From NCBI GenBank assembly GCA_000091205.1, contig AP006493.2: a DNA stretch of 64,000 nucleotides. One strand, given 5' to 3'. The notes under the pieces are model-generated. The model did no database searches and was not told where the DNA came from. It saw only the letters and a program-made list of their open reading frames with translations. This DNA comes from Cyanidioschyzon merolae. Taxonomy: Eukaryota. The translations under genes and the position numbers were made by a program. Of the stretch, positions 12,501-62,084 are shown piece by piece (position 1 is the stretch's first letter; every line of letters begins with the position of its first letter).

Positions 12501-14777
12501 TAGCAGTGAGCACATGGTGTAGCCTGACTTGCCAGGAGCACGCGCGAAGAATATGCATTTCTTGGTGCTCAATAACGGTGAGCGCGACGTCATCGGGAAT
12601 ACCTTGAACCTGGTGAATGCCCTCCGGGATGCGAGAATGTCTGAATCCAAGCCTCGAGCACTCCAGCCGATGCCCCAAAGCGACCACGACGTCGCTCCGC
12701 ATCGTTTAGGCAACCACGGCCGCGGGACGCCCAGCAGCATTGCCTCAAACGACTGTGGTCAGCAAGGGACCCCATGGATCGCTTGAAGGAAATTGAACAC
12801 CTGTCTATGATACTATCATGGCGCTCTTGGAACGTGATCACGCCCCATGATGAGCGCAAGTCCGTTCTCTGGTCATAGAGAGCGCTCGGGCATTCAGGGC
12901 ATTTGGTGAGGCGGTTCGATCCTGAAGCACAAAAATTTGATTCAAGTCACTGTTCACGTGGCCATGGTAAAGCTGTTCTGAGTGCCACAGACCTGGAAAC
13001 TGCATTGCTCTTGGGTCCGCCACGCCTTCAACATACGGGATAATAGCGTTCTGAAGGCGTTGCACAGAATGTCGCTACAGAAGCGGTGTCGCTGGTGCAC
13101 TGGATATGGACAGCGTTTGTGCACGTGAAAGGAGCCTCCTTCGCCTCATCGCTCTCGGGAATGATTTCGGTTCTACAAAGGCAAGAAAAGTGGGTTCACC
13201 AAATTGTTCGGTGAGTTGAAAGAGGACATTACCGATAAGAGTCGTTGTTTGATGGTGTCATATGGCGCTTGAAATGCTGTGGCGCTCGGAGGCTGCACTC
13301 GTGCTTCTTCGAAGAGAGTGTACAATGAGTTGAGGAACCAAGTCTGCGCGATTCCCATCAATGTATTCAGAACGACATTCACGAATCATGAGCATGCATG
13401 CTCCTTGAAACTGGTAGCGAAGAAGAGTGTGAGACAGTGACGGATGCATACGCTGATGTACGGTACGCTGACAGCGCATCGTGTCGTGATGTAATCGAAA
13501 ATGAGGGGTTCTCGACTGTGTTCTTCCAATGGCAATTATGCGCGCGAGCTCTTTCTGTACCCCGACATGAACGCATCGGCCAACAGCCGAAACTGCATCC
13601 TGCTTCAAGGGCATCGTGAGGCCTTATGTCGAGCGAGGATTCGAGTAAATCGTTTACTGCTCAGTGCGGACATGACGCTGAAACGCCGAGGACTTTCGAA
13701 AGATGAAAATTAGCGTTCAGGAAAGCTGAGATTCGATTATCGCTTGGGCAAGGTACAGAATTCGTATGGATTAGCAGTCCAGATTGGCTGGATCGCCATG
13801 TGCATACACTGGGAAAGATTTTCCTGAGTTACGAATGAACGGTAACAGTGTTCACTCACTCGATATTGCGCCGCATGATGATGCGCTCATTACGTACAAA
13901 AATCTAGGGCGGACGCAAGCGCTCAGCGAACGGAAAGGAATCCTCGCCGAGACATAAGAGCCGTCAGCGAGGAAGCATGAGCTAGTTCGAGCCAGAAACG
14001 CCGCTCCGCTGCATCGGATTCGGCGCTTCCTCGAGCCAAAGCCCTCTGTGGTACAGCAGAGCCGTTTTGTCTCCGTGTGACGACCGCACTGGCGCTGTGG
14101 GAGCTATTGCGGACGCTCATGGCAAGCTCTGCACTGGATTGAACGGAACGAGCGACAAGAATATCCGAGAAGAATTATGGCTTATGGAACTTGGTGGTAG
14201 ATGGAATGATAGATGCCTCACCGCGCGCTGGTACCAAGCGCAGAGTCGGGGAATGCTGGCCTGAATCAACGATTCGCCAAATGAAACCAATTTCGATCCC
14301 GCGCGCCGAAGCAGTGTTTCATATCGTACCGTCATGATCTTCCACGATATTCCTTATTCTTCCAACTTCTTGGGCAAACGGTCATCTCACGTACCATGTA
14401 CATTCTTGTATCTATATGAACTAAATGAAAATATTGGACCTGGACAGGAGCAACCCTCAGACAACGCAGTCACTAAACGGTCTCCTTGGTTCAGTGTTCA
14501 CGAGCGTGTGTTCCGCCATAGTCTGGACCTCGACCAAAGAAACCAGCTTGCTGTACTGCAAACTGTGATCGCCGGAACTCCGGAGTTTAACTAGAATCTT
14601 CTGAGCTGCTTTGAGCGGCAAGGTGGAACTGGTATTCACTGCTCACCGAGGCGAGCCTCGGAGCAAGCTTTCGGCAGGCGGCAGGAAATCTGGCGAACTT
14701 CTCAAGGGCTACCAAAAACCCCGGCTGCGTCTGAAAAATCCAGTGAGACGGCGATAAGCGCTACAGCGCACCGTCTC

Positions 14778-33004: not shown

Positions 33005-33634
33005 GGTAGCCAGTCACTGCACCAAACACTTTCGGAGAGATTTTATAAAACTGGTGATTTTACCGAGCTGTACTGAATGCGCACTGTCAGAGAAGCGAAA
33101 CGTTTGCTGTTCTTTGTGGGATAAACAAATACCTTCCCATAGACGCCTCCTAGTCTTTTTTGACCGGTCGCCTGCTACTAGTCTCAGTTTCGCCCTGTGC
33201 ATTTCGATCCTGAGAGGCTGCCCCTTAAAGTTTGCTCGTCTTCAGCACCGCAAATCTCCTGTTATTGATAGCAGCATGGGAGTCCCGGTTCACGAACTCC
33301 GCGTATGCAGCGCTGCTGGTGGACCTCACCAAAACAAGGATTCCTCGAACTCGCGCGTTCTGTGCCACTAAAGTCTCACCATCGCCCCGTTGGCAAACAT
33401 CACTTTCCTTCTGTCTACTTTCTTTTTCGTCTTCTTCTTGCTCACTTGCTCTTCATCGCTCGATGGTTTGCGAGAGGCAAATTTATTTCGTTTTTCCGAC
33501 AGAAGGCGACATCGGGGCTCCAGGATTTTCGACTCCCATGTTCATAACTTTCCCTTGGATTTCCTATTTCTTCAAATCACCACACCAGTTTATGCCCGCC
33601 AGGTGAGGACCTTCACAGAGCAAGAAGGACTTGT

Positions 33635-34575
33635 GAAAGAGATAATGTGCCCACTGGGACACCATGTGCTTAACGCTTCAGCGATTCGCCCGGTGGAACG
33701 ATCATTACATTTCAGGATACAAAACACTCTTTCGGTTAAGTTGAACCATGGAGCGTACGGAGTAATGAAAGGCGGCTCTACGGCGAGAGACCTGGCAAAG
33801 GCTCGAACGGAAGGGCAATTCTCAAATGCACGGTGTCCAATAGGAGGAGGTCTCCAGATTTCAGGGGAAAAGTCTTCAATGATCCGACGAAGTGGTCGAA
33901 GCTGCTGTTTGAGCCTTCTTTAGACGCCAGAACCGAGGCCACCAATAGTATCTACTGCAGCTAGAACATATGGTGATGTTCTCTTTCGCCTCGAGATCGA
34001 TTGTATATACAACGGGCTCCATGCTCCGCGAATACTCACACATGCTCCGATCGTTTCATTCGAATGACATCTCATCGACTGAAAGAATAAACCGACGTAC
34101 CTGTGCTTCATACGGCTAGTGGCGTTCCGGAAAAGCTATTGCTGCGATTTCGGTGGAGGATGGCCGTGCGTGATCTAGGGCGCTGTTTTTGCGACTACAT
34201 CGCAATGTCTGCAGGACCACGCGAGCTCCCCGCTCAGACACAGAGACGCTTGCGGTGGCTACTATTACGCCTTTTTTCTTCCCGTATGAGGGTCAACGGA
34301 TCGTATTCCATCATTGACTGGAAGCAGTCTTGGAGAATAACGGTTTTGTCGCGGAACGCATGTACTTGTTTCTTTCTTTCATTGTTCCTCAACGATCTGA
34401 GTACTGTTGTATGACTGAACTGAGGGGCGAACGCAGTCCTCCTTGCATTGTTAAGCAAAAAATATTCTCTACAAGCAATTTGTGTACAATCTATATGGTA
34501 CGCTGCGTAGAGATTTGCATGTCCTGCTCTACAGTGCGAAGAAGCATTCTATTTTACGCAGCGGGAGTAAAGCAA
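33635..34575. repeat. Copy 1 of a 941 bp perfect direct repeat. It is an internal segment of the TnpB/Fanzor-like element family.
   Basis: Identical over its whole length, as far as I can read, to 37415-38355 (offset 3780 bp). Divergence begins before 33635 and after 34575. A roughly 80%-identical inverted fragment of the same sequence lies at 54065-54185. Confidence 0.85.
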
Positions 34576-35370: not shown

Positions 35371-36774
35371 TCACTGACGGTCGAGGAGCCTCCGAACTTT
35401 CTGTATGCGTTGCTCCGCGTTCAGTCCGCTGCTACTTCGTTTTTCGATTGGAACGTGCACATCGGCGTCCACCATGTGAGTAAACATCAGTGGTGCCAAG
35501 CCCGCGCACGGCTCGTTTGCAGCTTCGGAGCCCTCATCCTTGCAAAATGGAGATCCGTGCGTGGTCCGACGCAACAGTGCTCCATTGAAGATAACTTTTG
35601 TAAGATCTGCATACCATTGGAGAAGAATTGGACGCAAAATGCCTACAACGGTTGAATTTCTTGAGCATTTTCCCCATGGAGAGTCTCTCTCTAAAGCGTA
35701 ACGCCATGGAGGTTCATTCTCTCCGTAATGAATATTCCAGAGCACCAGCGGGTGCTCTGGAGCTTGGACATACTGGGGTCGTGGATCTATTCTTGGTGAA
35801 CCGTCAAGCCCAAGAAGGCTGTCCACTAGAGAAATGTTCTCTGTGCCCCGACCGATTTCCAAGAGAAGAGCAATCATGAACCTAACTTGATGGTAAAGAA
35901 ATGCCTGGCCTTCGATGGTGAACTCTAAAATGCCACGAGGGAAAAGCGCGCGATAGAACTCATCTTTTGCGAGTTCGACTGTGCATTGCAGAATAACCCG
36001 TTCTGTGTTGCCTTTCGTTGTCTCCGCATCGAACTTGCAGAAATTGGCAAAATCATGTCTTCCGACCATCTTTTTGGCTGCAGCAACCATGCTACAGATG
36101 CCTTCATCGCTAAACACATTCGGCACGAAATATTTGTATGTTCGTGAATAGGCACTGAAACGAGCCGAGAAATCATCCGCCACGGGGGCCCAGGCGTACA
36201 CTCGCACTGATGCAGGCAACTCCCGATTCAGTAAATGTATATAGTCATAAAAGTTAGTCCCCGTGCCAGGTGGAGGGCACCTTACCAAAAGCGATACGAC
36301 TTGGCCAATTGCACTGACACCCTTATCGGTGCGCCCACCACGAGCGTACTGCCAACCTTTTACAGCCCAGGTCTCACCGAACTTCTCTCGGCTGAGAGGC
36401 CTGTTCGGGGACACCCCTGTGGCGCACGTGCCGTCACTGCCAACGAACCAGTGCAAATTGGGTACCAGATTTACCTTCTCTAGCGCATAAAATAGAGCAC
36501 TCTCTACAGATTTGAATGCGATTCCACTAAGCTTCCCCGCCGAAGACGTGCTGAAGTCAGCCGGCTGAGCAGCAAAACCAGAAGGAAACGACCAACCTTG
36601 GTATGCAAGCTTCAACGCTATTTTTCGAACGCCGTACTCTTTGAAGTTGATTTCGCGAGCAGAATTCTTATTACGGGAGCTGCTCCGCTTCAGTCCTAGC
36701 AGTTGCTCCAAACGTGCAGCGTAAGCCTCCAGTTCTGCTCGGCTTAGTTTCGAAAGGTTCTGTACAGCGCTCAT
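35371..36774 (-). CDS. PUS3: tRNA pseudouridine synthase, TruA family (Pus3/Deg1-like).
   Basis: N-terminal coiled-coil, then RKIALKLAYQGWSFPSGFAAQ. The catalytic Asp lies in YARGGRTDKGVSAIGQVVSL, followed by RVYAWAPV. ATG at 36774; 467-aa uninterrupted ORF. Confidence 0.75.
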   Translation of the reverse strand: MSAVQNLSKLSRAELEAYAARLEQLLGLKRSSSRNKNSAREINFKEYGVRKIALKLAYQGWSFPSGFAAQPADFSTSSAGKLSGIAFKSVESALFYALEKVNLVPNLHWFVGSDGTCATGVSPNRPLSREKFGETWAVKGWQYARGGRTDKGVSAIGQVVSLLVRCPPPGTGTNFYDYIHLLNRELPASVRVYAWAPVADDFSARFSAYSRTYKYFVPNVFSDEGICSMVAAAKKMVGRHDFANFCKFDAETTKGNTERVILQCTVELAKDEFYRALFPRGILEFTIEGQAFLYHQVRFMIALLLEIGRGTENISLVDSLLGLDGSPRIDPRPQYVQAPEHPLVLWNIHYGENEPPWRYALERDSPWGKCSRNSTVVGILRPILLQWYADLTKVIFNGALLRRTTHGSPFCKDEGSEAANEPCAGLAPLMFTHMVDADVHVPIEKRSSSGLNAEQRIQKVRRLLDRQ

Positions 36775-36849: not shown

Positions 36850-38355
36850 CTATAACCAAGTTGTGGAACAAACTGGTCCAAACACGAAATGGTTTCCCTC
36901 CATCCAACGAAAATAAGAAAACAAAGTTGGCTCAGCGAATCGAAAGCCCCTTTCGCAAACACGGAGTAGATTTATATTCACGCGCAGACGCCTCGCAGCC
37001 TTTATCGACCAGCCACGTGCTGTCGGCCTCAGAGTCTCCTTCTGGACTTCCACCCGGAGAGGCTGCCCCATAAAGTTCGCTCGCGTCAGCGCAGCGGGTC
37101 TCGCCTTCTGCACCGCACATCTGCTGATATTGATGGCAGCATTAAAGTCTTGGTACGCGAACTCCATGCATTTATTACTTCTGGATGAACTCACCAATGC
37201 AAGCAGCTCTCGAACTAGTGCCCTCAGTGCCACTTGCTGCTGTGTCAGTTCTTCATGTTTTTCAATCGCGGATGCGCCCCGCTCGCTCTTCTCCACCTCG
37301 ACTATCTGCATTGTGCATCCCGGCACATCCCTAAGATGTTTTATTTTTGAACATGTACGCATTTCTTCTTGCCTTTAGATGACAACTTTCCCGGAGGCAG
37401 AAGAGCTCGTGGAAGAAAGAGATAATGTGCCCACTGGGACACCATGTGCTTAACGCTTCAGCGATTCGCCCGGTGGAACGATCATTACATTTCAGGATAC
37501 AAAACACTCTTTCGGTTAAGTTGAACCATGGAGCGTACGGAGTAATGAAAGGCGGCTCTACGGCGAGAGACCTGGCAAAGGCTCGAACGGAAGGGCAATT
37601 CTCAAATGCACGGTGTCCAATAGGAGGAGGTCTCCAGATTTCAGGGGAAAAGTCTTCAATGATCCGACGAAGTGGTCGAAGCTGCTGTTTGAGCCTTCTT
37701 TAGACGCCAGAACCGAGGCCACCAATAGTATCTACTGCAGCTAGAACATATGGTGATGTTCTCTTTCGCCTCGAGATCGATTGTATATACAACGGGCTCC
37801 ATGCTCCGCGAATACTCACACATGCTCCGATCGTTTCATTCGAATGACATCTCATCGACTGAAAGAATAAACCGACGTACCTGTGCTTCATACGGCTAGT
37901 GGCGTTCCGGAAAAGCTATTGCTGCGATTTCGGTGGAGGATGGCCGTGCGTGATCTAGGGCGCTGTTTTTGCGACTACATCGCAATGTCTGCAGGACCAC
38001 GCGAGCTCCCCGCTCAGACACAGAGACGCTTGCGGTGGCTACTATTACGCCTTTTTTCTTCCCGTATGAGGGTCAACGGATCGTATTCCATCATTGACTG
38101 GAAGCAGTCTTGGAGAATAACGGTTTTGTCGCGGAACGCATGTACTTGTTTCTTTCTTTCATTGTTCCTCAACGATCTGAGTACTGTTGTATGACTGAAC
38201 TGAGGGGCGAACGCAGTCCTCCTTGCATTGTTAAGCAAAAAATATTCTCTACAAGCAATTTGTGTACAATCTATATGGTACGCTGCGTAGAGATTTGCAT
38301 GTCCTGCTCTACAGTGCGAAGAAGCATTCTATTTTACGCAGCGGGAGTAAAGCAA
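36850..38355 (-). pseudogene. Partial TnpB/Fanzor-like element (copy delta). The C-terminal fragment, including the RuvC-III-like motif, is contiguous with direct-repeat copy 2. Reading is broken across frames.
   Basis: Minus-strand ORF 36850-37362 reads ...KIKHLRDVPGCTMQIVEVEKSERGASAIEKHEELTQQQ...NKCMEFAYQDFNAAINISRCAVQKARPAALTRANFMGQPLRVEV. It aligns with the copies at 42.6 kb, 54.5 kb and 57 kb. Homology to copy gamma continues upstream into 37415-37500 in another frame (ILKCNDRSTGRIAEAL versus IMKCNDRSIGRIARPF at 54400). Confidence 0.55.
37415..38355. repeat. Copy 2 of the 941 bp perfect direct repeat.
   Basis: See 33635-34575. The shared sequence begins gaaagagataatgtgcccactggg. Confidence 0.85.
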
Positions 38356-42443: not shown

Positions 42444-42610
42444 AGGTGCCCAACTCTAGAGAGCGTGCTCTCACCCAGGATTCGGGGTTCCAAATGTTTT
42501 CGATTAAAGAACTGAGCGCGTATACGACTGAAATTTAAGAACCGGCCACTCCTGGAAACAAACGCCTTTCGAAAGTCGAACGACGCCAACCGTGTTCAGT
42601 TGTGGCGATC

Positions 42611-44960
42611 TACCTGCCCCAGACAAGATGTTTCCAATTGACGTGCAGACGCCTCCCCGTCTTTTTGGATCGGCCACGCACTACTACTTCCAACTGTTTC
42701 TCATATAGTTCCACTTTGACAGGTTGTCCCATAAAATTCTCTCTTGTCGACTCTGGAGGCCTTCTTTCCATCACCGCACATTTCCTTATATTGATAGCGG
42801 CGTTAAAGTCTCGTTCACAAACTAAATACGTTTCTTGCCATCATTGGCTGTACTTACTAGTGCAAGTGGCCCACGAACTTTCTCCATCCTTTCCATTTGC
42901 TCTTCCGTCAGTGCACCGTTCTTTGCTATTTCCTCAGGGCTCCGCTGACACTTTCCCATCTCAACCCTCTGAAGTGTACAACCCAGCTCGTGGCGTATAT
43001 ACGTTGTTTGAAATTCATCTACAGGTACTGTAACAAAACGCCGTGCACGCTCCTTGTTCACTCTCGTCTTTGGAGCTGGAGTAGTCCCTTTATGGGTCTT
43101 CCAGCGCCCTGCTCCGTATGCTAATACGAGCCTCTGACTTTCATCCTCTTTGAGAGCACTCAACTCATCGAAAAAATTCGCGAACGCCCGCTGCTTCCCA
43201 TTGTATAGATTCATTCGCAAACGAGCCCACCGGCGCTCGGTATACTCCTCCCACAGCGCATCCCAATGCGCAATGCGAACTTCCATGAATTTCCGAAAAG
43301 CGTCAAAGTCCGCTCCTCGGCTCGTCACCTCGCTCAAAGCTTCTAGGTGATCCTTCATTCCTGAATTCCAGCTCTCGATTTTCTTCCTCGCATTCATTAT
43401 ACCCGATTCTCGATAGTATCTCGCTATCGAGAACCTCAGTAGACGCATGTCTTCCCGACGTAAACTACCGTCAGTACCATCTTCCGCACACTTCGGTGCT
43501 GCGATGGTGATGATATTTGTGTTCCCAGCGTCCGCGCCAACGACAAAGTAGTTATGCTGCACTTTCTGTGTCGCTGGATCCGCCTCCTTCTTTTCTTCAT
43601 CCTTCACCGCGTCAAAGACAAGGTCGTTATCCTGCACCTTTTGCATCGCAGGATCCGCTTTTTTTTTTTCTTTTCTTCATGTTTCTTCACGGGCGCAGCC
43701 GAGGGCGGAACTGGACGATCTTTCTTCAACCGCTGATAGTGTACATTCAAGGCTACTCCATCGGTTTCGATCAACCCAGTGAATACCTTTTGTTTGCTGA
43801 CTTTGAGACGTTTGAAAGCGAAGATATTCTTCCAGTACGTCTCACGGGCTTCACCGGAGAACTCCTCCCTGCTAACATTGAACTCTGGACTGATCTCCCT
43901 AATGATGCCATGAAGGATTCTGGAGTCGATACTCACGAAATGTGACTTGAGGTTGCACAACAGAACGCCATTGAAGCGCTACCCCATTAGGACAGCCTCC
44001 CGTCTCTCCCACTCTTCATTTGTCTCTACACTCAGCTTCATTTCCGCCTTGCGTTCGAGCTCTCGGTCCAGAAACACGACATAGCGCAGAATGAGGCGAT
44101 AGTATCTTTCCTTATCTTTTTTCAACTCTGATATCTTTTCTGTTGGATTCGCCAGCCCCAAGACTGTACGGTGCTCTTGTCTAGCCGCACGGATTATAGA
44201 AGCTTCATTCGTGCTCCTGTGTCACTTTTTCTTGTCGACAAATTCGATCTCATCTTCATACTTTCGATCGTTCTTGATGCCACTGATAATCGCCCATTTT
44301 CCTTTGCGAGAGATGCCCGAGTAGAGTGCTAGCACGGCGTGTATCATGAAAAGTTCGAGGTTCACGATCGGTTGGTTCTTCAGATTCGTGAGGTACTTAA
44401 TCGCCCCATAGTCGTAAACATCCGAGTCACCCCTGTATCGGGTACCCTCGAAGCTATAAAAGGCATGTTTTCGTGCAGGGCGTGCACCAGCTCATTTTCC
44501 CTTCGCGCTTCCTCTGTGCCAAGCATCAGGTGACGAATAAAGGTCTTATCGAAAAACTCGTCCGGAATCTCGACCGTTTCCATGTGCGTCACTTCGCGAT
44601 ACACCTCACTCGCCAAATGCATCAGTCCTGACGACGCCTTGACAATACTCTTGGAGTATGACGCAACACGTCTTTCGATAGCGTCTCGCAACTTGTCCCT
44701 GTAGGGATCCTTGATATGTCCAAGAAGAAAGGTTTTCACCACCATCTCGTCGCACAGTTGTCATTCTTGCCGCTTACGACGTAGGGCCTCTCCATTTCGG
44801 TTCTACTTCTCTTCCTTTTCTTCTGGACCTGGTACTGTTTTTTGTTTTCTTCTGGCAGCCAGCGACACTGAGCCTCTAGGATCGTGGACTTGCTCTTCCA
44901 TAACTTTTCTTTTTTTAATTTTTTGAAAAAGAACGCTCTTTTACAGCTTGCGTCACACAC
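42611..44960 (-). mobile_element. Most complete copy (alpha) of a eukaryotic TnpB-like (Fanzor-like, IS200/IS605 OrfB-superfamily) RNA-guided-nuclease element, about 2.3 kb. It is a pseudogene with one in-frame stop and at least two frameshifts.
   Basis: Minus-strand pieces: 44736-44960, 44380-44745, 43979-44161 (ends at an in-frame TAG at 43979-43981), 43604-43960 and 42822-43646. A RuvC-I-like motif reads [15 protein letters not shown], with an earlier echo [14 protein letters not shown] Fanzor-like block reads LVLAYGAGRWKTHKGTTPAPKTRVN...FVTVPVDEFQTTYIRHELGC. After a further frameshift, the RuvC-III motif ERDFNAAINIRKC lies at 42788-42814. The tail ends at the stop at about 42611. Confidence 0.55.
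43556..43692. repeat. Roughly 65-75 bp in-gene tandem duplication inside element copy alpha. It contains an 11-nt T homopolymer (43659-43669) that causes a 1-nt frameshift.
   Basis: Unit A reads ctgcactttctgtgtcgctggatccgcctccttcttttcttcatccttcac. Unit B reads ctgcaccttttgcatcgcaggatccgcttttttttttt cttttcttcatgtttcttcac. Adding one A to the minus-strand A11 run joins ORF 43604-43960 to ORF 42822-43646 in frame. Confidence 0.7.
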
Positions 44961-50581: not shown

Positions 50582-51394
50582 GCAGCGTAGCAAAAAAAGA
50601 GCATCAAGTTGCACAGTGGTTTAGAGCGTCAGCGCTCCTACAAGGCGTGTGCAGTCGCCGGTCACATTACTCTGTCTTGAATTTTTTTCAGTCTCTGGTT
50701 CGTGCACTGTATCAACAGGAGTTTTACTGAAGCAAGTGAACAGCGGTAAATATATTTGGAAAGAGCTTCTCTCTGCTTGGCGATCAGTTAAGTTTTTCTG
50801 TACAGCACGCACCTAATCCAGAGACCGTTTCCCCGTAGAGCAATGGGGTGCAGGACATCTGCCCTTACGAGCGGGCAAGGGTATGGCGCAAGTGCTTCCA
50901 TAACGTTGTTGTTAAAGCATCCATTTTGCAGAGCGCATTGTCTGAAATAGATCCGATTTTTTTCCTTCTTGTAGCTATGCGCAGAGCAGGTAATTCTGGA
51001 ACACCTGTGCCAGCGCTCTTCTCCCGTATTTGTTTGTTATTATCACAGGCATTCAACCAACTTTAAGTATCCCTTGGATCGAAGAACCGTCGCAGAAAGA
51101 TCTACTGCTGTCAATGCTCGCATGCGAGAAGCGACTTTACTTTTACATGTCAGTTCCTCTGCGATCAGATGATAGATGAACCATCTAGATCGTAGTCCCT
51201 TTGCTTAACTTCATAAATTCGAAAGGAACTAGTCGGCCTCTGTCTTCATGGATGTCACCCTCCCCAATTAGTTTATTCATCTTCAGACATTGCCTAGGTA
51301 ATACAAGCAAAGAAGTCACAGGATGCGATTTTCCGTACCGTTGTTGCGAACGGTGATGAACAGACAGGGGTGGAGAATGAAAAATGTATGCTTC

Positions 51395-51540
51395 TATGGA
51401 AGAGCGTCACGCGTTGTTCTATGCAATATCCACTTCGTTCCGAAACGCGAGCGCTTATCCATTTGCGTGATCGCCTACACATTGCGACGCGCCCAAGTCC
51501 GTGATCCACTTTATCCTGCGCGTGATCACTTCGTGACTTC
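51395..51540. repeat. Diverged dispersed repeat, about 70% identity, with an inverted partner at about 59155-59295.
   Basis: 51450 reads ...gcgcttatccatttgcgtgatcgcctacacattgcgacgcg... The reverse complement of 59200-59260 reads ...gcggctcttcatttgcatgatcgcctacatatcgcgaaacgg... Conceptual peptides LSICVIAYTLRRAQVRDPLYPARDHF and LFICMIAYISRNGQVRSSLHPAREDF align. Confidence 0.6.
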
Positions 51541-52680
51541 TACTTTCCAAATTCGAATATCCAGCTCATTGTCAATGTTGGATCGCGTCAATCAACGGCG
51601 GTCAAAGTGTACGCAGCTGAGAATGGAGTTCTGCTGTTACTTGTGCCAGCATGTGCTCCCCCGCTCGATGCAGTTGAAGGCATCTTCTCTGTTGCCGAAC
51701 GCAGATTTGCGCTCACAGTTAAGCAGAGGAGTCGTTCGCGTCTGCGACAACTTTTGTCGACAAATCACTCTCTACATTTAGCCGCCTTGAACTGCTGTAC
51801 TAGTTGTCTACTCAAGGGAGACAGGTACCGGAAAGCGTGTCCGTCCATAGATACTTTGCGACGGAGATTGCGACGGATATGTGCTTGAGGAAGTTCAAAT
51901 ATATACCTTGAAAAAAGAGGAGGGTTTCAATCGAAATTTGCACACAAAGCATCTTAATCCCAAGTACGGATATGGAGACGGAATACATTGCCCAAATCCA
52001 GGCTATGCCGCCAACAAGAAGAGAAGCCGATGAAGGAAACGTTCTTATTGCGCGAATATGAAGCACGCAAGCGACTTCGTGAAGAGCATATGCCGAGCGC
52101 GTTCATGAATTCTCTTTTACTAGGAGCAAATTGAGAAAAGTTCACAGGCACCATCCCTCCGATGAAAAACAAATCTGCATATATTCTGTGGGAACCAGGT
52201 ATGAGTCGCGAAACGATACACATTAGCATGCATTCAAATTATATGAACAGAGAGATTCTATGGTGCACGTGATTCTAGAGTTGAACCCCGCCATGCCCCT
52301 TGCAATACCCAGGAAATCAAGATGACAGGCTCAAAGACCGTACAGGAACGCAGATGAAGCTGATCAACTTTGCTGGACTCGGTATTATCGTGAATTGAGC
52401 ACTGCGAAGACCAAGAGACCTACCAGCAATAAAAATGACGGCTTCAGGATCCATTTCGACGATCTGAGCAACTCATGGAGGAGAGCGGATTGCCTCGACC
52501 GTTTCATTCAGAAAGTTAGTGAGCGAGCAAATGGCTTCTGCGGACGATCTTGCACAGGCGTTTGAAACACCGCGCTATCTTCGCCCGCGGTGTCAGCATT
52601 ACGAAGGCCAGAAGCGCGCTTACGCCAACTTCTTCGATATTTTGAAAGTAAATGATCACGATGTCGCTTGGTATCATGTT

Positions 52681-53174
52681 AGCCGATGGCGCTGAGCATG
52701 CGCGAACACTCCAATGCTGCTGTCCTGCTCCTTCGACTGGAGCTTACAACTAGTGCGAGAACTGATTCTTCATCATGACCATCGATTTGCTCAGGACGAT
52801 GCACACGCATCCTGAGCACAGGTGCACGCTGAAACAGGCAGAGAAAAAACGCGTGAGATGGAGGCGGATGCATGAGCTTGTGCAGGGTAAGCTTTCCGAG
52901 CATCAGATGTCGATGCAGTCGAGGTTTCGAGGCTCGCTACAGTGTGCTTTCACCACCAACCAAGCGTGCAAGCAGTTTCCGCGTCGAGACTTGAACGCCA
53001 CGATAAACATCTGTAGATTCCTAGAAGTGCGAGCGCGTCCAGCAGATTTGTGTCGAGTGAATGTGTGATGTAGTTGTGTTGTACTCAATGAGCGCATTAC
53101 ATGGAAAGCGGAAGACTTTGGATAATATAGTTTGGTGACTAGGAGAGATTCATTGCATGCACGCCTGAAGCAAC
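52681..53174 (+). repeat. Copy A of a 494 bp inverted repeat (about 99.8% identical to 56835-57328). It contains the 3'-terminal fragment of a TnpB/Fanzor-like gene (copy epsilon).
   Basis: ORF 52775-53068 reads ...HPEHRCTLKQAEKKRVRWRRMHELVQGKLSEHQMSMQS...LQCAFTTNQACKQFPRRDLNATINICRFLEVRARPADLCRVNV. One mismatch to the partner was seen, in the conceptual peptides (SRFRGS versus SWFRGS). The boundaries were located by base-by-base comparison of the reverse complement. Confidence 0.85.
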
Positions 53175-53999
53175 CCAATATTCTTCGTTGCGCTGATCAG
53201 ATTAGCAAGGCCGGAGCAATGTGTACGTATATCAGGAAAGATTTTGCGAGGCGATTGTTGAACGATAACTGCGTTCAATTATTCGACATTACTGAGTGTA
53301 GGGCTAACCCACCGAGCATTTTTCTTTCCATGCGCTACTCTGGTTACTGAACCCTGTCCTTTGCTGCTCAAGCAAAGCTCTTTGCTCTATGGTGTAGCAG
53401 ATAACTTCCGAGTACGCTCCTCCAATCTCTAAATTTTCGGGTAACGATCCTACCGTCTTGAGCTTTTTGTTCACTTAGCGCCAAATTCTTTGAAAAAACG
53501 ACTCTATCCGCGGATTCTTCAAGGTTTCTCTTTAATGTGGCCAATAGAGTTTTCCAACTCAAGTTTGTTTCACTCTCGCTGCAGTGGATGCCAGGAGATG
53601 CAACTCTCTATGCAGCGCAACGTATAGATTGTAGACGAATTGCTTCTAGGGTACATTTTTTACTGAACGGCGGAAGGAAGACAGCGTACATCCATCAGTT
53701 CAGTCACACCGCAGTACTCAGATTACAGATGATTAATGAAAGAAGGAAAAATACAGGTATATGCCATCCGCACCAAAAACCGATATTCTCACAGATTGCT
53801 TGTGGCCAACGGTAGGAAACGACCCGTTGATCACCTTAATGAGAGCAAAAGCGACACCAGAAGCCGCGACACCCGTCTCTGTTTCTGAACAGCTTGTTTA
53901 CGTGGTCCTGAAAGCACTGGGATACAGCCGCACAAGAATGTTCAGTTTCACGCATTTTCATCTCCCACCGAAATCGCAATGACAGCGTTCCTAGAACGT

Positions 54000-54914
54000 C
54001 GTGATCGGTATGAAGCACAGGGAGGTCGGTTGCTTTTTTCGATAGATGAGAATTCCATCGGACGAACCGGTCGGAGCGAACATGCGTATTAACAGAGCAT
54101 GGAGCCCGTTGTATATACAATCGATCTCAAAGAGAACGACGATATAATTTGTTCTAGGCGCAGTGGATACATTTGGTGGCTCTAGTTTTAACTCCCCGAG
54201 AAGGCGCATAAAATCCCTCCCACTTTTTTAAATTATTGAAGACTTTTCCTCGACGCTAGGCGACGTCCTTCTGTTGGCCAACGTAGCGTTTCACCGGTTT
54301 CCTTGTGTTCGAGTTTTGCTGATTCTGTCGGGGTAGAGATGCTTCTAATTCCTCCCTACTCTCAGTAGCAGAACCTCATTGAAGAAATGTTTTTTATCAT
54401 GAAATGTAATGATCGCTCCATTGGACGAATCGCTAGACCATTCAGCACCGTAGCGCCGGGGCATACTTCGTCCTTGTTCCGCAAGTGATTCTCGCTCCAG
54501 GAAGAGATTTAGCTGAGGTCATGAACAAGTGCGTTCATTTTCAAGAAATTGCACCTAAGGAATGAGCTGCGGAGCTCATTTCAAAAGGTCGAGAGGGGGA
54601 GAAGCCAGCAGGGCGCTTCGGAGATAGGAAAGCACAGGGAGCTGACAGGGCAGCAAATGGCAATGAGGGCAAGGGATATAGGAATATTTGCATTGTCGCG
54701 TTCCAGCAACGGCACTGCAAGCATTGAGTTCGTGAACTTAGGCTCCAAAGCCGCCATCAATATCAGACAGTGTGAGGTATTGAAAACGAGACCCGCGGAG
54801 CTGAGGCGAACTTACTTTGTGGGGCGGCCTCTCAGAGAAGAAGTGTACAAGTTGAAGCTCCAGCCGATAGCATTCGGCCGGGCAAAACACTGGAACGCGT
54901 CCGTGCGTGGGTAA
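54000..54914 (+). pseudogene. Partial TnpB/Fanzor-like element copy gamma (C-terminal half, frameshifted).
   Basis: ORF 54549-54914 reads ...GASEIGKHRELTGQQMAMRAR...GSKAAINIRQCEVLKTRPAELRRTYFVGRPLREEV. The upstream 54390-54480 region is homologous to the reverse complement of direct-repeat copy 2, and 54065-54185 is about 80% identical to the reverse complement of 33930-34040. Confidence 0.55.
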
Positions 54915-56834
54915 TATTGAACCCCTACGGGTTGTGGCGCATTACTCATTTAACCTACAGCAAACTGAGCCCGTGGATAGACGTTTACTCACGGCCCGTT
55001 TGGGGTTTCAACAGCCGCAACTGGCTACGTCTCTGGTTTGTAGATGTTCATCGTCGCGATTCCTCAAAGGGGACGTTTGTTCGGGAAGCGTTTTAATCCT
55101 GCGTACGCGATTGGCTCTAGCAAACTGCACAAATCACAAGGAGCAGGCTGCTGCGTAGCGGCTCGCAAAATGCTTGGAGTGACCAACCGCACGCCGCTGC
55201 TGGCGCTGGAAACGAGCGAGGACACCCTCCCGGGGAAAGCCTTCCAAGCACCGGAAAGAGAGGCTCATGAACCTGTAAATTCGAACGCTGTGGCAGACGA
55301 AGTTCCCATAACTAGCTCTGAGCTCGAGCTACCAGCAGATTCGGACGCTTTAGAAGAGAAGCAGCTACTTCTTCTGCTCAAGAAACAGCTCGGGGCAGAT
55401 TTCGAACGAATTTTTGACTCAAAAAATCCATTCATAGGGGAGGTTTTCTGAGCGAGCCTGCTCAACCTGTCAGGACGGGATTTATGTCAACAATTGCATC
55501 CCAGCGGTGCTCGAGTACGTTCAAAGCCAGGTAATCCGTGCACGTTGTGGAGCTGGTGCGCATTTTTTGGGTATCATGTTGGTCTTTCTACCCAGGGAGA
55601 CAGCATTAATCTACCAATCAACAAATTCTTACTAGCACATGGATCCAATGCGTGTGACTCGTGATTCAGCACTGACCGAGGCGTTTCAAACGGATCGACA
55701 TGCTCAAAACCGGCGCGAAGAATCGTGAGAGCTTCTATTTGGACCGTCGACCGTAGCTGAAGAGTATGCGTGGAGTCAAGCTTCTGCTGAGGCTACATAT
55801 CCCTGCGGCGCGTTAGGCCGTCGGGTAGAAGTACTCTACGAGCTAATTGCCTCGTGGAGTACGCGTTTCGCACGCGTCCCTAGCGCACAGTCTTGCCTTC
55901 AGACACGAGTGTCGGGACGGAGTCGGGCTGTACACTGGAAACCTGATGACGTTCACAGCACGCCCACGCGTTGTTGCAGCCTCGGCAACGTGCCCCGATA
56001 CCGGCTATTGTCGCTAATTTCGAATCCGAGCACTTGGGCACGTCGGACACCAGGGATCCGGTTCAAATTGGCGGCTACATTTTTACCAGCGAGCTTTTTT
56101 GGGTATTTCCAATATGTCCAGCAATTCTGATTACATGGCATTCACCATCTGTGTCTAGGCATCGAAGTGGTACTGCATATATATGTCCTTCGAAAATGCG
56201 CATCTCTGTAAACTCTAGCGTTAAGCAGTTCAATGTTTTGTGGTGGGTACATGCTTATTGCCATTCCAGTGCCCACGACTGCTTTTGATCGCATGTTTCA
56301 CGCATGTATGAGTACTAAAAGCGAACTCATTGGGTTCGCGTCTGTCTGGATGCCCGACGAAAAAGCCTGGCTCTTAAGGCGAGTACTGTGAAAAGGAGGG
56401 GATAGAATGGCTCATATTTCCTGAGCTGCTCACCATGTCTAAAACGATCCTATAGACTGCATCCTCAGGTCTATGCATGAGCGTTGATGATCTGAATTCT
56501 TTCGGCATCTGTTCGAAATGGGCATCGCACTGAATATATCCGCAGGGGAACAATCTGAAATAATTCGCGATCTCGTTGGCAACGGTCCACGATCTAGAAG
56601 ATATCCCTCTCGCGCGCTTCCCCAAATGACGCTTCCAGACGGCGCAAGTTCCTGGAGGCGACAGACAAACGCATCATCACCAGGAGACAGGTAACGAAAC
56701 CCCTCTTGATATGCATAGAAATTGCGAAAACTTTAACGCCATTACCGTTCATCAGCTGCAAATGAAAATCGTTCCCTGTGTCTATCTAGGGCGCTCTAAT
56801 ATTTCTGGATGAGTAATCCGTACCGCACCAGTGC

Positions 56835-58950
56835 GTTGCTTCAGGCGTGCATGCAATGAATCTCTCCTAGTCACCAAACTATATTATCCAAAGTCTTCCG
56901 CTTTCCATGTAATGCGCTCATTGAGTACAACACAACTACATCACACATTCACTCGACACAAATCTGCTGGACGCGCTCGCACTTCTAGGAATCTACAGAT
57001 GTTTATCGTGGCGTTCAAGTCTCGACGCGGAAACTGCTTGCACGCTTGGTTGGTGGTGAAAGCACACTGTAGCGAGCCTCGAAACCACGACTGCATCGAC
57101 ATCTGATGCTCGGAAAGCTTACCCTGCACAAGCTCATGCATCCGCCTCCATCTCACGCGTTTTTTCTCTGCCTGTTTCAGCGTGCACCTGTGCTCAGGAT
57201 GCGTGTGCATCGTCCTGAGCAAATCGATGGTCATGATGAAGAATCAGTTCTCGCACTAGTTGTAAGCTCCAGTCGAAGGAGCAGGACAGCAGCATTGGAG
57301 TGTTCGCGCATGCTCAGCGCCATCGGCTGCTGCTGTAGGATGCGACTTATCTGTCAGTCGCTTTCCGACTCATGAGATAGACTGGCGAACGCATGCGTCC
57401 CGCCTCCGTACAGCCTGGCCCGCAGGCGGTCCTAACGCGGTCTCGAGTGTTCGTACCGTACTTCGCCCGCATGAGTGATCTAGATACCAATGTACGCGCG
57501 TCATGAGGCGTCGAGGGGTGCTCCCTCTGTTCGATACGGTACTCAGGGCGTCTAGAAGGATCCTCACGCCGCATGCCGCTCGTCAATATGCCTCCTGCGG
57601 TCCATCATGCCCAACTCTCGATGACGCCCAGCCCCCGAACTGCTGAGCAGCCCGATCCGCTTTCCGCTCGGTTCTTTTGGTCGTTTCTTCTCATTCTCAG
57701 GTGCGGCGACCGCGAGGAGGCCCTTCAACGCGGGATCCACACGCATCCCAAAGTGCGCCTCCTGTTCCACTCTATACGAGGGACAATGAGTCTCGCGTGC
57801 CCGACTCAGGCGTAGCCATCGGAAAATCTATGCAGATTGATATTCTGTCGGCCCCCATGGTTCCTCTAAGTTTCTCTCCATTTGCTCCGTGTGGATGAGA
57901 ATTCTTGGACGCGCTCGCCAGACGCTCTTCACAAAGTTGCCTGTGTGCTTCCTATTTGTGCGCAGACACCAGCAGCAGCTCACTGAAAACGCCATACACT
58001 ACCGAGCTGGTTTGCGGTGATATGGTGGCCATGATCTGACTGTTGGGTACCGCATCGAACAGACGCTCAAGGTAACTGGTGCGCTCGGACTCGCGACGGG
58101 ATTCGGCGCTGCTCTGGCGCGCTTCGTTCAGGGACAGGTGCTGGCGTAAGGTACACGGAACGAAGGCATCGCGCTTCCACCATTATTCGGACGCAATGTC
58201 CGTGGGTGCGAATCTGAGAGCTACGCAGTGAGCTCGGACGATCTAGACTCACTATCGCTCTGTTCATGACGTCTCCTACGAACTTGCAGCCAACTCGATG
58301 TCCTCCGACATTGGCGCCCCGTTGGCCTCCATCAACACCCCAAGAAAGCCTGCCACCAATCGTCACTTTTGCGGTCCAGCGAGCGGCTGCCAGATCGCCC
58401 CCGGGATGCGTCTCTTGAAGCGCTCGACGTTGGCCGGCAAGCTGGTTCCGTTTTTGCTTCGCGGTTCGTTTGATGCTTTTCTGTACCAGCGCTGCAGATG
58501 TCCCGATCTTCCACGTCGTGCAGCTACTCGTCAAGGTATTCTGCGAAGCGGGTGAGCAAATCTCTGCTCCTGCAATCAGGCCGCATTCCAGCTCCGGTCC
58601 CGATTATCAGTTGCTTTGCCGTGCATAGGTTCGATCGGAATTTCCAGAGGAATCAGGACAGACGGGAGCCCCGCGACCGAAAGTCGTGCGAGTAGTTGTC
58701 TGAGGGGCTGCGTCAAGCCAAGGCACGCAAGATGAGTCTTGCCCGAAACAAGCTTCGCTTTCCGAATGCCGTCCAGCATCTCGCTTATTGGGGAATACTC
58801 TCCGTTGACGTGTTTCAGTAGGGTGGCCTCGACAATGATTTCAGAGTTTGCTGTCCGCTCGCGAAGATTTTTGGCCGTGTACCTACCCGTTCTTGTTGTG
58901 GAAGGATGTTCCTCTTCTTCGTCGGATGCGCGTTCCGCCTTCTCCATTTC
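56835..58950 (-). mobile_element. Near-full-length but heavily disrupted TnpB/Fanzor-like element copy beta. Its 3'-terminal 494 bp (56835-57328) is inverted-repeat copy B.
   Basis: Minus-strand fragments in N-to-C order. First, 58576-58947 (...LLKHVNGEYSPISEMLDGIRK, aligned with [18 protein letters not shown] of copy alpha). Second, 58067-58534 (GRLSWGVDGGQRGANV, RuvC-I-like). Third, 57370-57567 (RGSTPRRLMTRV, aligned with KGTTPAPKTRV). Last, 56941-57234 (RRDLNATINI). Confidence 0.5.
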
Positions 58951-59142
58951 CTGGCGGCGTGGTATCGATGCGGTGGCCAGTATTCATACCCGTTGTACTC
59001 TTTGAGGTTCATACGCTCCGTGTAATTGGTGGCACTGAAGCGTCCCTCTCATAAGTGTTTATCTACCACTCGCCAAATACCTCTTCATCACCGTCTCCAT
59101 CGTGAGCACGCCCGCGCAGCCGAGAGAGCTTCTCCGATCCCG

Positions 59143-59156
59143 CACACACACACACA
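59143..59156. repeat. (CA)7 dinucleotide microsatellite.
   Basis: Direct reading: cacacacacacaca. Confidence 0.8.
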
Positions 59157-59921
59157 CTCGCACGAAAGGTGAATCCATGAAGTCCTCACGAGCAGGGTGA
59201 AGTGATGAACGAACTTGTCCGTTTCGCGATATGTAGGCGATCATGCAAATGAAGAGCCGCTTGGGGGATGCTACTCTCACCCTCACGTATATCTTCTACA
59301 CGAACAGCGGTTTGCCGGCCTTCGAGTATCCATACACGGGTAGGCCAGCTTTCTAGAATGGCGTCTCATCGAGAGAGACGAAACCCCGTCGCTCTTGTAG
59401 CACGCGTTGGAGTTTCAATACGAAAGTGATAGTTTGTCGTTCATCACGCGATGCTCTCACACACACGCGTGCTTTTTCTCTGCGGCAATCAAAAACTCTT
59501 CATCACCGTTCGTATCAACAGTACGGAAGCTTCAAATCCTCTGGCTTTTTTGGTAGTCTTTCTCAGAGAAGATATGGACTGGAATGGATTGGCGGAAGAC
59601 AGACTCTCGTATAGATAGACTTTAATAAGATCTGTTTTTAATATATGGCGTTCACGATACGGACAATGAGAGAAATCAATCATCCACCTGCTGACCAGCA
59701 TGGTGAATGAGTTGTACAAGCCAAGCCAAGTCGTTTTTCGCAAGCGAGCAGTGATTGCATATAACGCTTTTCACGACGTTCCTCTGATCTCCACGATACA
59801 TTCCTTTTGTCGAGTACCCATGAGAGAAACAAGCGAAAACAAAAAGGACGTGCAGATAAATGCGTTCCAGAACTCGCAGTTCTGATTGTAATTATGGACC
59901 GAATGTGGACCTATCCGTGTG

Positions 59922-62084
59922 CTATGCCTCGCAGAGGCATGCGCAGCTCCCATATACGGCTCGTAATCTGTGCAGAACGTGGTGGACAGATCCGACGGGC
60001 GCGTTCCCCGTCGGTTTCAGGACATCGGTAAGCAGGCTTTGAACAGCGGCTTTGAAACTTTCTAGTGCGGCCAGATCTGCATCATGTCGAGCCTCCCGCA
60101 GCAGCGTGTAACGTCCTCTTAGCATTGAGTTGACATGTCCGGGCGAGATTGGCACGAAATCAAAAAGCGATCGGAATCGAAGGGCAAACGCAGCTTGTTC
60201 CGATTCTGATAGCTCCTCTTTCGGCGGCAGCTCGTTCTCCGAGCATGCCCCGTGGATTAACGCAGATTTGTGAGTCGCACCATCCACGTTTTCTTGAATG
60301 GAACATCTAGGGCAAGAGTTCTCGCTGACATTGCGTGCGCTGTCCTGCACCTCGACATCGCGAACATATTCTCTTCTACTTAATACTAGCCTCGCTCTCA
60401 GCAGGTGCAGGGAAACATGCTCCTCATTTGGATCATACCAAAAAGACAAGATGGAATCAATACTGCGTAGCAGAAGGAGCTCGAGCGCCTGCAGGTACCT
60501 CAACTCAATTGCGCTGTACAATTCCAGGTCGAAACCCAAATCTATGATGCGCAACACAATCCAGAGCGCCAAAGCTGCGCGTCCCATATCGATGCCGCGG
60601 AGCGTCTCCACAGCTTTGGAAAGTGCTCTGCAGCGCAAGCCCCGTCCCGTTGCCGAATTCAGCGCAGCAAGCACAGCCTGCCGTGTCCCGTTATCTCGGC
60701 CTATCTTTCGTAAAACTCTTAAGAGTCGACGCCTTTGTCTGCCACTGTTCATGCATAATACATGAATTAGGACCTCGATTATCGGCAGCAACTGCTCGGC
60801 CTCAATACTGGCGTCAGCAATAGCTGTGCTACGTTCGGCATCGAACGTTCGATGTGGCCCTTCAGTTTTCTGGTCATAAGCATGAACAAAACTCCTTGCG
60901 ACGCTGATCATCTCTTTGCAGAGGCAAGCCCTTGAAACTCCAGCCAATCTTTCGCGTCCATGTAGCTCGACGCAGATGCATGCGAGGTCGAAGCAAGCCA
61001 CGGTGCAGCGCTCCAAACTTGGAAAAGGCGGTGGTGCGAGTTTCCCGCGGAGAAACCTCGATGCTCGATCTAGACGAATACAAAAGGCAGCAAAATCATC
61101 AATGGAAGCGAGTGCATCCTTGTGTTTCATCCGCGGCATCCGCATCGGCGGCGATGGCGGCAGCAGGTGTCGCACCACAGCAGCGTCGAATCCCAGCGTG
61201 CTCTCATCCTGCTCCTCGTGAAACGCAACGACGGAAAGATCTGATAAAAGACGCTGCAGAATATGGGCCTGGCTGTTCAGATCTGACAGAGTTTGCCCTG
61301 TGGAGGAAGCCAAGATGCATAGGTGCCACCATATATCGATATGCCCGATAAGCTGTGCCTGCAGGCGCGGGTCCAGACCTACGGAGCCAGCCGCTTCAGC
61401 GACTTCACGGACGGCCTGATCGCGCAAAAAAGGGCATACGTTTTGGCCAATCGCTTTTGATGTAGATTCCGAATCGAAGACTGGGACGTTTCCAGATATT
61501 TTCCGTACAAGCTTGAAAGGCAGTTGCATCTTCACAGATATATCTTCCTCGAAATGCACATTTGTATGTAAGATTAGCGCCCGAATATGACGTACAAAGA
61601 AAATGCAGCACTCATTCAGAAAAGATGTAAAAGCAGTACCAGGATGTTCTTCTCGAAAAAGGGCTTTGAAGATGTAGAGATTTGGCAGCATAAGTTCCGG
61701 AAGCGAACACCGGCCATCAGCCCAGTTGATTGCAGTTGACAGTGAGGTCTTTATGAGAGACAGTGCTGGTGTGTCTTTCCAGACCTCCGTACAGAAGAGC
61801 TCATCAATTGAGTCTGGTACTATACCTTCCTGAACACTGTCTAGGTAGGTTTTCCCGAGGGGAAGGCTTGCGCCGCTGTCTAGATTCGGAGAGGTCAGCT
61901 CCACTGCAGAGATACAGCTTGCCCAGCGGAAGCTCTTGCCAGTGAATACCATTTCATCTGGAGCAAGACACTGGGTCGCGGCGAAAAACGCCTCCGTAAC
62001 TTCCGCCCATTCGGCTCCGGGCTCCGGTGGACGGGACCGGCCTGAGCCGGTACGCAACGCTTCCGATGATCCAAGCGTGGCCAT
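59922..62084 (-). CDS. Large hypothetical protein of about 720 aa with no recognised domain.
   Basis: Uninterrupted ORF. The track start at 62288 is a GTG; the first ATG (MATLGSSEALRTG...) is at 62084. It is predominantly helical and Leu-rich, and I see no motif I can name. Confidence 0.4.
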   Translation of the reverse strand: MATLGSSEALRTGSGRSRPPEPGAEWAEVTEAFFAATQCLAPDEMVFTGKSFRWASCISAVELTSPNLDSGASLPLGKTYLDSVQEGIVPDSIDELFCTEVWKDTPALSLIKTSLSTAINWADGRCSLPELMLPNLYIFKALFREEHPGTAFTSFLNECCIFFVRHIRALILHTNVHFEEDISVKMQLPFKLVRKISGNVPVFDSESTSKAIGQNVCPFLRDQAVREVAEAAGSVGLDPRLQAQLIGHIDIWWHLCILASSTGQTLSDLNSQAHILQRLLSDLSVVAFHEEQDESTLGFDAAVVRHLLPPSPPMRMPRMKHKDALASIDDFAAFCIRLDRASRFLRGKLAPPPFPSLERCTVACFDLACICVELHGRERLAGVSRACLCKEMISVARSFVHAYDQKTEGPHRTFDAERSTAIADASIEAEQLLPIIEVLIHVLCMNSGRQRRRLLRVLRKIGRDNGTRQAVLAALNSATGRGLRCRALSKAVETLRGIDMGRAALALWIVLRIIDLGFDLELYSAIELRYLQALELLLLRSIDSILSFWYDPNEEHVSLHLLRARLVLSRREYVRDVEVQDSARNVSENSCPRCSIQENVDGATHKSALIHGACSENELPPKEELSESEQAAFALRFRSLFDFVPISPGHVNSMLRGRYTLLREARHDADLAALESFKAAVQSLLTDVLKPTGNAPVGSVHHVLHRLRAVYGSCACLCEA

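Follow-up and report, generated by a model that had tools for sequence, protein, structure and literature searches.

A near-identical inverted block in two decayed Fanzor1 copies of Cyanidioschyzon merolae, best explained as a gene-conversion patch

The stretch of DNA analysed here (64,000 nt of contig AP006493.2, assembly GCA_000091205.1; hereafter the window) comes from the red alga Cyanidioschyzon merolae, laboratory strain 10D, and harbors several decayed copies of a repeated element that encodes Fanzor1. Two of them, copies A and B, lie in inverted orientation and share a block of 494 nt that is nearly identical, embedded in homology that has decayed to about 60% identity. This block is likely a recent non-allelic gene-conversion patch between two old, inverted, CMe-1A-like Fanzor1 copies. 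The structure is real, and it is best regarded as a footprint of ordinary recombination rather than as a new mobile element. What had looked like a mobile "mini-Fanzor" with a defined right end thus turns into a recombination patch in two dead copies of a known transposon family.

The 494-nt block and its diverged surroundings

Arm A, the putative conversion tract, occupies positions 52681-53174 on the plus strand and consists of decayed C-terminal Fanzor1 coding sequence. Arm B, at 56835-57328 on the minus strand, is its reverse complement, with one mismatch in 494 nt at position 52922 (99.8% identity). The match can be followed to 497 nt at the cost of a further mismatch at 53175. The two arms are inverted with respect to each other and separated by a 3.65-kb spacer, and a repeat of this kind is well above chance expectation. 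Ungapped identity drops immediately outside the block on both sides, at the same base in both arms. The pair had been described in an earlier interpretation of the bare letters (the sequence-only reading) with the same extent and identity, and independent assemblies agree with it. Physically, single-stranded nucleic acid could fold into a hairpin or cruciform over the 3.65-kb spacer, but there is no sign that this is relevant.

Each arm contains RRDLNATINICRFLEVR and an open reading frame (ORF) of 97 codons (52775-53068 in arm A), whose C-terminal end reads ...RRDLNATINICRFLEVRARPADLCRVNV and which is followed by 106 nt. The earlier description of the last ~100 codons plus 106 bp is correct for this ORF, but not for the ancestral Fanzor1 frame, which spans the entire block (~165 codons) and is interrupted by two in-frame stops, identical in both arms. 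In the numbering of the relative P0002 (478 codons), the block begins near codon 314 and reaches approximately the ancestral stop. Comparison with intact relatives places this stop at ~53113-53176, roughly at the block edge. Arm A retains the RuvC-III motif RRDLNATINI. The catalytic Glu is gone from the arms, which read IDLLRT where relatives have VDEFRT, with the two in-frame stops located upstream of this motif. Because of the lost Glu and the stops, the arms do not possess an intact D-E-D RuvC triad and, as judged from their sequence, represent dead remnants of a Fanzor1 gene, that is, a pseudogene and not a functional member.

The homology between the two copies does not end with the block. 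Upstream of arm A, the plus-strand region 52050-52680 is ~60% identical to 57961-57329 and stands in register with it, at 54 versus 55 nt from the block edge. The local alignment of 52050-52627 with 57961-57383 (60% identity) scores 87, compared to 11 ± 1.3 for shuffled sequences. On the downstream side, 53235-53293 aligns with 56776-56718 at a score of 21 versus 9.3 ± 1.3, a value reached by 0 of 300 shuffles. Both flank alignments are colinear with the block to ≤1 nt, and this diverged downstream match contradicts the absence of shared flanks implied by the sequence-only reading. The A/B identity profile adopts the form of a step, with ~45-65% upstream, 100% over the block and ~50% downstream, and displays no gradient; the 50-200 nt immediately adjoining the block are already only ~45-55% identical.

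A greater level of detail about the right-hand boundary is offered by two independent decayed copies of the A/B subfamily, c13 (13096-13868, plus strand), used for locating the true 3' end, and c1 (1240-3419, minus strand), in which 5' module and 3' tail are both preserved. Past the block edge, all four copies (A, B, c13 and c1) can still be aligned over ~120 nt, to ~53297 in A and ~56716 in B. This tail (53178-53297 on the plus strand in A, 56831-56716 in B) shows diverged conservation in all four copies and includes the motifs GGGAAMGATTTYC, TGAACGGTAA and TTCGAYA. Alignments of A and of B with c13 begin at the block edge, with scores of 25 and 27 versus ~9 ± 1.2 for shuffles (z ~14-15). A strict motif search for the conserved tail gave no match, the pattern being too strict for copies that are ~65% identical. 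Since the family homology runs on past the block, the block edge lies inside the element. Both arms do end at the same base, as had been noted, but this base is not the genuine right end for which it had been taken. The 3' boundary of the subfamily can instead be placed at ~53297 in copy A, in a family for which Bao & Jurka could not determine target-site duplications (TSDs; PMC3627910).

Within the block region, A and B are 60% identical to c13 and 64% identical to c1, which equals the divergence of A from B in the flanks. Apart from the patch, A and B are therefore like any two old members of the family. In their flanks they resemble each other no more than they resemble the unlinked c13 and c1, and this equal divergence argues for independent old insertions.

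Copy A (~50983-53297, plus strand, ~2.3 kb) is a decayed, internally shortened CMe-1A-like Fanzor1 element, in which a 5' module (50982-51547) and the 3' tail, ending at ~53297, flank what is left of the ORF, its C-terminal third (52380-53062). The view of copy A as a solo 3' fragment has to be abandoned, with Fanzor1 homology extending upstream to at least 52380, and homology to copy B covering 52050-52680 as well as the 5' module. Copy B (56716-59884, minus strand, ~3.2 kb) is a decayed near-full-length element, as had been recognized before, with its 5' module at 59164-59884, coding remnants at 56893-58947 and the 3' tail at 56716-56831. When full-length relatives were mapped onto the window, the coding remnants of copy B (58947 to 56893) corresponded to residues 51-680 of P0123, and those of copy A (52380-53062) to residues ~430-680.

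Sensitive local nucleotide alignment of A with reverse-complemented B yielded two matches, 52050-53293 with 57961-56717 and, at 60-73% identity, 50982-51547 with 59884-59164. The comparison rests on such local alignments; a global MAFFT alignment put the 5' module in the wrong place. The copies face each other tail-to-tail, and 3.4 kb separate the 3' end of one from that of the other. The 5' module of ~0.6-0.7 kb is common to 50982-51547, 59164-59884 and ~2944-3419. Copies B (59885-59960) and c1 (3420-3490) additionally have ~80 nt of 5' homology beyond copy A; this may mean a small 5' truncation of copy A, or an element that truly starts beyond 59884. No shared flanking motif or duplication was seen at the corrected 5' ends (~50983, 59884, 3419) and 3' ends. 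Repeat searches of the window revealed no inverted repeat assignable to the ends of a single element, no search having been aimed at short terminal inverted repeats (TIRs).

Independent sequence data allow for a comparison of the block across strains. Copies were sought in 241 million metagenome records and in a collection of 5.8 billion protein clusters, the 10D genome itself being covered within the window. Six peptide patterns from the arm ORF, scanned against the metagenome records, returned three loci, two from the B side (L004, L005) and one from the A side (L006). Exact look-ups gave B-side contigs only (L002, L003, L007), and in the protein collection the arm ORF falls into a single 90% cluster of 4 sequences. 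Neither the metagenome contigs nor the protein clusters contained a third copy of the 494-nt unit or any other relative of the arm ORF, and the further copies with different flanks that the sequence-only reading had envisaged were thus not found there. Lycopene cyclase and a variant of the B-arm ORF had no exact entry in the contig index.

Three of the contigs (L003, L004, L005) cross arm B and continue into the spacer, in the orientation seen in the window. L001 and L006 reach arm A and stop 127 and 172 nt inside the block, and L002 and L007 stop precisely at arm B's inner edge. Breaks of short-read contigs at the block are expected for a two-copy repeat with these boundaries and provide an independent map of its edges. 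For the inner junction of arm A, no independent contig crossing it was found. The strains in these metagenomes are 98.5-99.6% identical to 10D. Both L001 (JGI 3300050360) and L006 (Ga0080006_1134333) are environmental contigs of 54-68 kb with 99.5-99.6% identity to 10D and the gene order of the window, pointing at near-identical wild C. merolae populations in the sampled metagenomes.

Divergence between the arms amounts to 0.2-0.4%, compared to ~0.5% between strains, the latter being equal in block and flanks, and none of the sampled strains lacks the block. From these values the conversion event would be about as old as the strain split, slightly predating it. Site 52873 is T in both 10D arms and C in the B arm of four other strains, whose A arms are not assembled. 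This pattern could reflect a later exchange, and is explained equally well by a single substitution in the other lineage.

Gene conversion and the alternatives to it

In the proposed sequence of events, copies A (plus) and B (minus) would have inserted independently and decayed to ~60% identity. A single ectopic, intrachromosomal conversion would then have replaced ~494-497 nt in one copy by the homologous sequence of its neighbor, the latter presumably serving as template during the repair of a break or gap. The outcome would be a patch with sharp boundaries, in register and 99.8% identical, that stops ~120 nt before the 3' terminus of the element. The patch has no function of its own in this reading, both arms being pseudogene sequence. 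We infer that the event was a templated repair of the homologous or homeologous type. C. merolae is a haploid organism in which homologous recombination works very efficiently. Classical non-homologous end joining (NHEJ) has been reported absent from it (PMC6635534). Absence of classical NHEJ together with haploidy and proficient recombination would make repair from a nearby homeologous template plausible, and probably favors it in this organism. Gene conversion is the most economical explanation because it accounts at once for the size of the tract, its sharp edges and a replacement that stays in register. The pattern expected of it, near-identity that starts and stops abruptly, in register with longer paralogous homology that has diverged, is the one displayed by copies A and B.

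A second identity island in the window follows the same pattern. Positions 33635-34575 and 37415-38355 are 100% identical over 941 nt in direct orientation and 3.78 kb apart. Each lies inside a partial copy of a second Fanzor1 subfamily, and the sequence adjacent to them is ~67% identical. In the wild-strain contig L001, the two 941-nt copies are likewise 100% identical and show no difference from the window, with ~8 strain differences expected over 2 x 941 nt. As this direct island is of the same kind as the inverted one, a single process, gene conversion, covers both.

Several observations weigh against gene conversion. Canonical homologous recombination is very inefficient at ~60% identity, leaving the anchor for strand invasion unexplained, and neither a stretch of elevated identity nor obvious microhomology is present beside the tract. 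Donor and recipient are indistinguishable, with flanks and block equidistant from c13 and c1. No patch-free strain occurs among those sampled, so that the state before the event was not observed, and a third donor copy elsewhere in 10D, outside the regions searched, is still conceivable. Homeologous or microhomology-primed repair, in a haploid deficient in NHEJ, could also have left the tract. A bolder version, which we consider quite unlikely, regards both islands, the inverted one of 494 nt and the direct one of 941 nt, as footprints of an unusually promiscuous templated repair from ~60%-identical neighbors in a haploid host devoid of classical NHEJ. Under it, an active Fanzor1 nuclease that cleaves sibling copies might even introduce the breaks, and decayed transposon copies would be re-homogenized locally in patches.

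Two other mechanisms would act on the same pair of arms, and both appear unlikely to us. In replication template switching, also termed quasi-palindrome correction, a nascent strand would copy ~0.5 kb from the nearby inverted arm and switch back, with no need for long flanking homology. The inverted arms, only 3.65 kb apart, suit this process, and abrupt edges next to ~60%-identical flanks are awkward for classical recombination. However, it cannot have produced the 941-nt island, which is in direct orientation, and no microhomology is evident at the switch points. Known template-switch tracts are moreover mostly tens of bases long. The second mechanism, an ancient inverted duplication whose core was held identical by continuous concerted evolution while its edges eroded, agrees with homology of ~2.3 kb on both sides of the block, and the T/C pattern at 52873 could reflect exchange after strain divergence. 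Yet no outward gradient of divergence is seen, the adjacent 50-200 nt being at ~45-55% already. The A-B flanks are no closer to each other than A or B are to the unlinked c13 and c1, and site 52873 is explained equally well by a single substitution on the branch of the other strains.

Insertion of the block as a unit is far less probable still. A mobile miniature of 494 nt with a genuine Fanzor/IS200-605-like right end, inserted twice by peel-and-paste transposition, is hardly credible, even though identity ends at the same base in both arms and the block spans the 3' part of the ORF, where the omega RNAs of TnpB and Fanzor are encoded. Homology of the four copies runs ~120 nt past the supposed end, both arms sit in register within older homologous copies, no copies with other flanks occur in the metagenomes or the protein database, and the sequence is that of a pseudogene. 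Folding did not detect the omega-RNA-like scaffold that had been anticipated: the single-sequence folds of the two arms are worse than those of shuffles (z = +1.7 and +3.1), the consensus fold of the four copies is weak (-5 kcal/mol), and the block has no match in Rfam. These tests used decayed copies, for which a missing fold is uninformative about the active family. The sequence-only reading had itself named the lack of further copies, combined with flanks shared past the boundaries, as the outcome that would speak against mobility, and this combination is what the data searched show. A non-homologous local duplication, in which a 494-nt fragment (for example, captured filler DNA) landed inverted 3.65 kb away and by chance inside another copy, would account for the abrupt boundaries and for the lack of a TSD. 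It deserves as little credence, as an exact homologous segment was replaced with flanks colinear to ≤1 nt, which is extremely unlikely for random insertion.

The least probable explanations, an assembly artefact or selection on a small functional ORF or RNA, draw on the 97-codon ORF being intact in both arms. Against an artefact, independent assemblies reproduce the junctions of arm B and the outer junction of arm A, short-read contigs break at the block edges, and the window derives from the finished sequence of the 10D genome, which we take to be complete. Selection cannot yield 99.8% nucleotide identity beside flanks of 60%, and strain polymorphism is equal in block and flanks. Furthermore, the arm ORF has no relatives beyond the locus among the protein clusters, and Rfam returns no match. 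Between the two origins offered by the sequence-only reading, peel-and-paste transposition and an inverted segmental duplication, a local, non-transpositional one comes closest. The duplication was not a simple one, however. As the shared flanks are only ~60% identical, the block is better described as a recent patch inside two old copies.

If gene conversion is indeed responsible, the block hints at ongoing exchange over short distances between strongly diverged repeats, in a genome without classical end joining. Both islands also offer substrates for further rearrangement. The inverted arm pair could mediate inversion of the 3.65-kb spacer, and the direct 941-nt pair, which lies on either side of the gene for pseudouridine synthase 3 (35371-36774, minus strand), could mediate deletion of that gene.

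Further Fanzor1 copies in the window

The spacer between the arms contains gamma (53581-54933, plus strand), the partial copy already noticed by the sequence-only reading. It belongs to the second Fanzor1 subfamily, is 68% identical to c33 and c37, and carries a C-terminal remnant at 54531-54911. ORFs of the spacer show no Pfam domains. Gamma, c33 (33130-34575) and c37 (36958-38355) have ~1 kb of common sequence upstream of the C-terminal Fanzor1 fragment, and this sequence has no match to the N-terminal part of full-length Fanzor1 relatives. The three copies may thus represent a rearranged or non-autonomous derivative subfamily.

A near-intact Fanzor1 gene is located at 42552-44850 on the minus strand, with a single frameshift near 42813. 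It harbors a 75-nt acidic tandem repeat (43532-43672), the copy number of which varies among the metagenome relatives P0002, P0008 and P0013. No TnpA-like gene was found among the window ORFs scanned. Elsewhere in the window, an overlapping short direct repeat (12296-12397/12386-12487, ~71% identical, offset by 90 nt) is present at the 3' end of a MiaB-like methylthiotransferase gene.

Fanzor1 identity and comparison with known systems

The long ORFs of the window encode host genes of a compact photosynthetic eukaryote, including Rpb1, a plastid sigma factor, lycopene cyclase, UMP synthase, frataxin and RAD23, and six window proteins are residue-for-residue identical to C. merolae 10D entries within BAM80433-BAM80445. 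The protein of the repeated element displays the motifs GxDPG, VDEFRT and NRDxNAAxNI. Fanzor-like window proteins gave no significant match in Pfam or NCBIfam, and a shallow profile of the element protein found nothing in the PDB. A deeper profile was built from 33 relatives taken from an exhaustive hidden Markov model search (1431 hits, mostly of 600-700 aa). It matches the solved Fanzor1 structures of Parasitella (PpFz, 9cf0, E = 4.7e-20), Spizellomyces (SpuFz, 8gkh, E = 7e-13) and Guillardia (GtFz, 9cer, E = 4e-3). D176, E348 and D417 are invariant in the alignment of intact relatives.

An AlphaFold (AF2) model of the relative P0017, with a predicted local distance difference test score (pLDDT) of 74, adopts a TnpB/Cas12-type fold with a split RuvC domain. 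It matches SpuFz best (E = 2e-10, template modeling (TM) score 0.53), followed by PpFz and GtFz, and Cas12 and the TnpB structure 8h1j rank after these three. Profile and predicted model thus bear out the original "Fanzor-like" label and indicate that the repeated element encodes Fanzor1. For many relatives of the window segment 42822-43646 (P0008, P0009, P0013, P0017 and others), PF26935.1 is listed among precomputed annotations, and a Pfam-A scan of the same proteins gave no match; this entry may be newer than the scanned library, or the precomputed hits may be sub-threshold.

In likeness to interlocus gene conversion, the block is a near-100% tract of a few hundred bases within older, diverged, colinear homology, its partners lie close together on one chromosome, and a second example is found nearby. 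The difference is that a flank identity of ~60% is far below the usual recombination substrate. The resemblance to the right ends of TnpB-bearing IS200/IS605 elements and of Fanzor elements is that the block corresponds to the 3' portion of a TnpB-type ORF, that of Fanzor1. In contrast to such ends, the block halts ~120 nt before the conserved 3' end, and it has no conserved or stable RNA structure that we could find, a dead nuclease remnant and no sign of mobility as a unit. IS200/IS605-like peel-and-paste transposition was rejected as a class for this locus: homology continues past the block, only two sites were found, and the corrected ends display no shared motif.

The element family is already known and is of the CMe-1A kind. 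CMe-1A of C. merolae encodes Fanzor1 and is present in ~150 copies that are ~80% identical to a consensus of ~3 kb (Bao & Jurka 2013, PMC3627910). It is devoid of TIRs, its TSDs were left undetermined, and its 5' 635 bp are common with TE-N2_CMe (PMC3627910). The 494-nt identity patch is absent from that description (PMC3627910). A further difference is the presence in the window of at least 2 subfamilies, A/B/c13/c1 and c42/c37/c33/gamma, which are ~33% identical at the C-terminal protein level. The features that define CMe-1A are found in the window as well, namely the same organism, a Fanzor1 protein, a length of ~3 kb (~3.2 kb for copy B), and old, diverged copies with no TIRs among the inverted repeats reported and no recognizable TSDs. 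The 5' module of ~0.6-0.7 kb may correspond to the 635-bp TE-N2_CMe-like part, a correspondence drawn from the published description. Finally, the pairwise identity of 60-64% between copies in the window is consistent with the ~80% identity to the CMe-1A consensus reported for the family.

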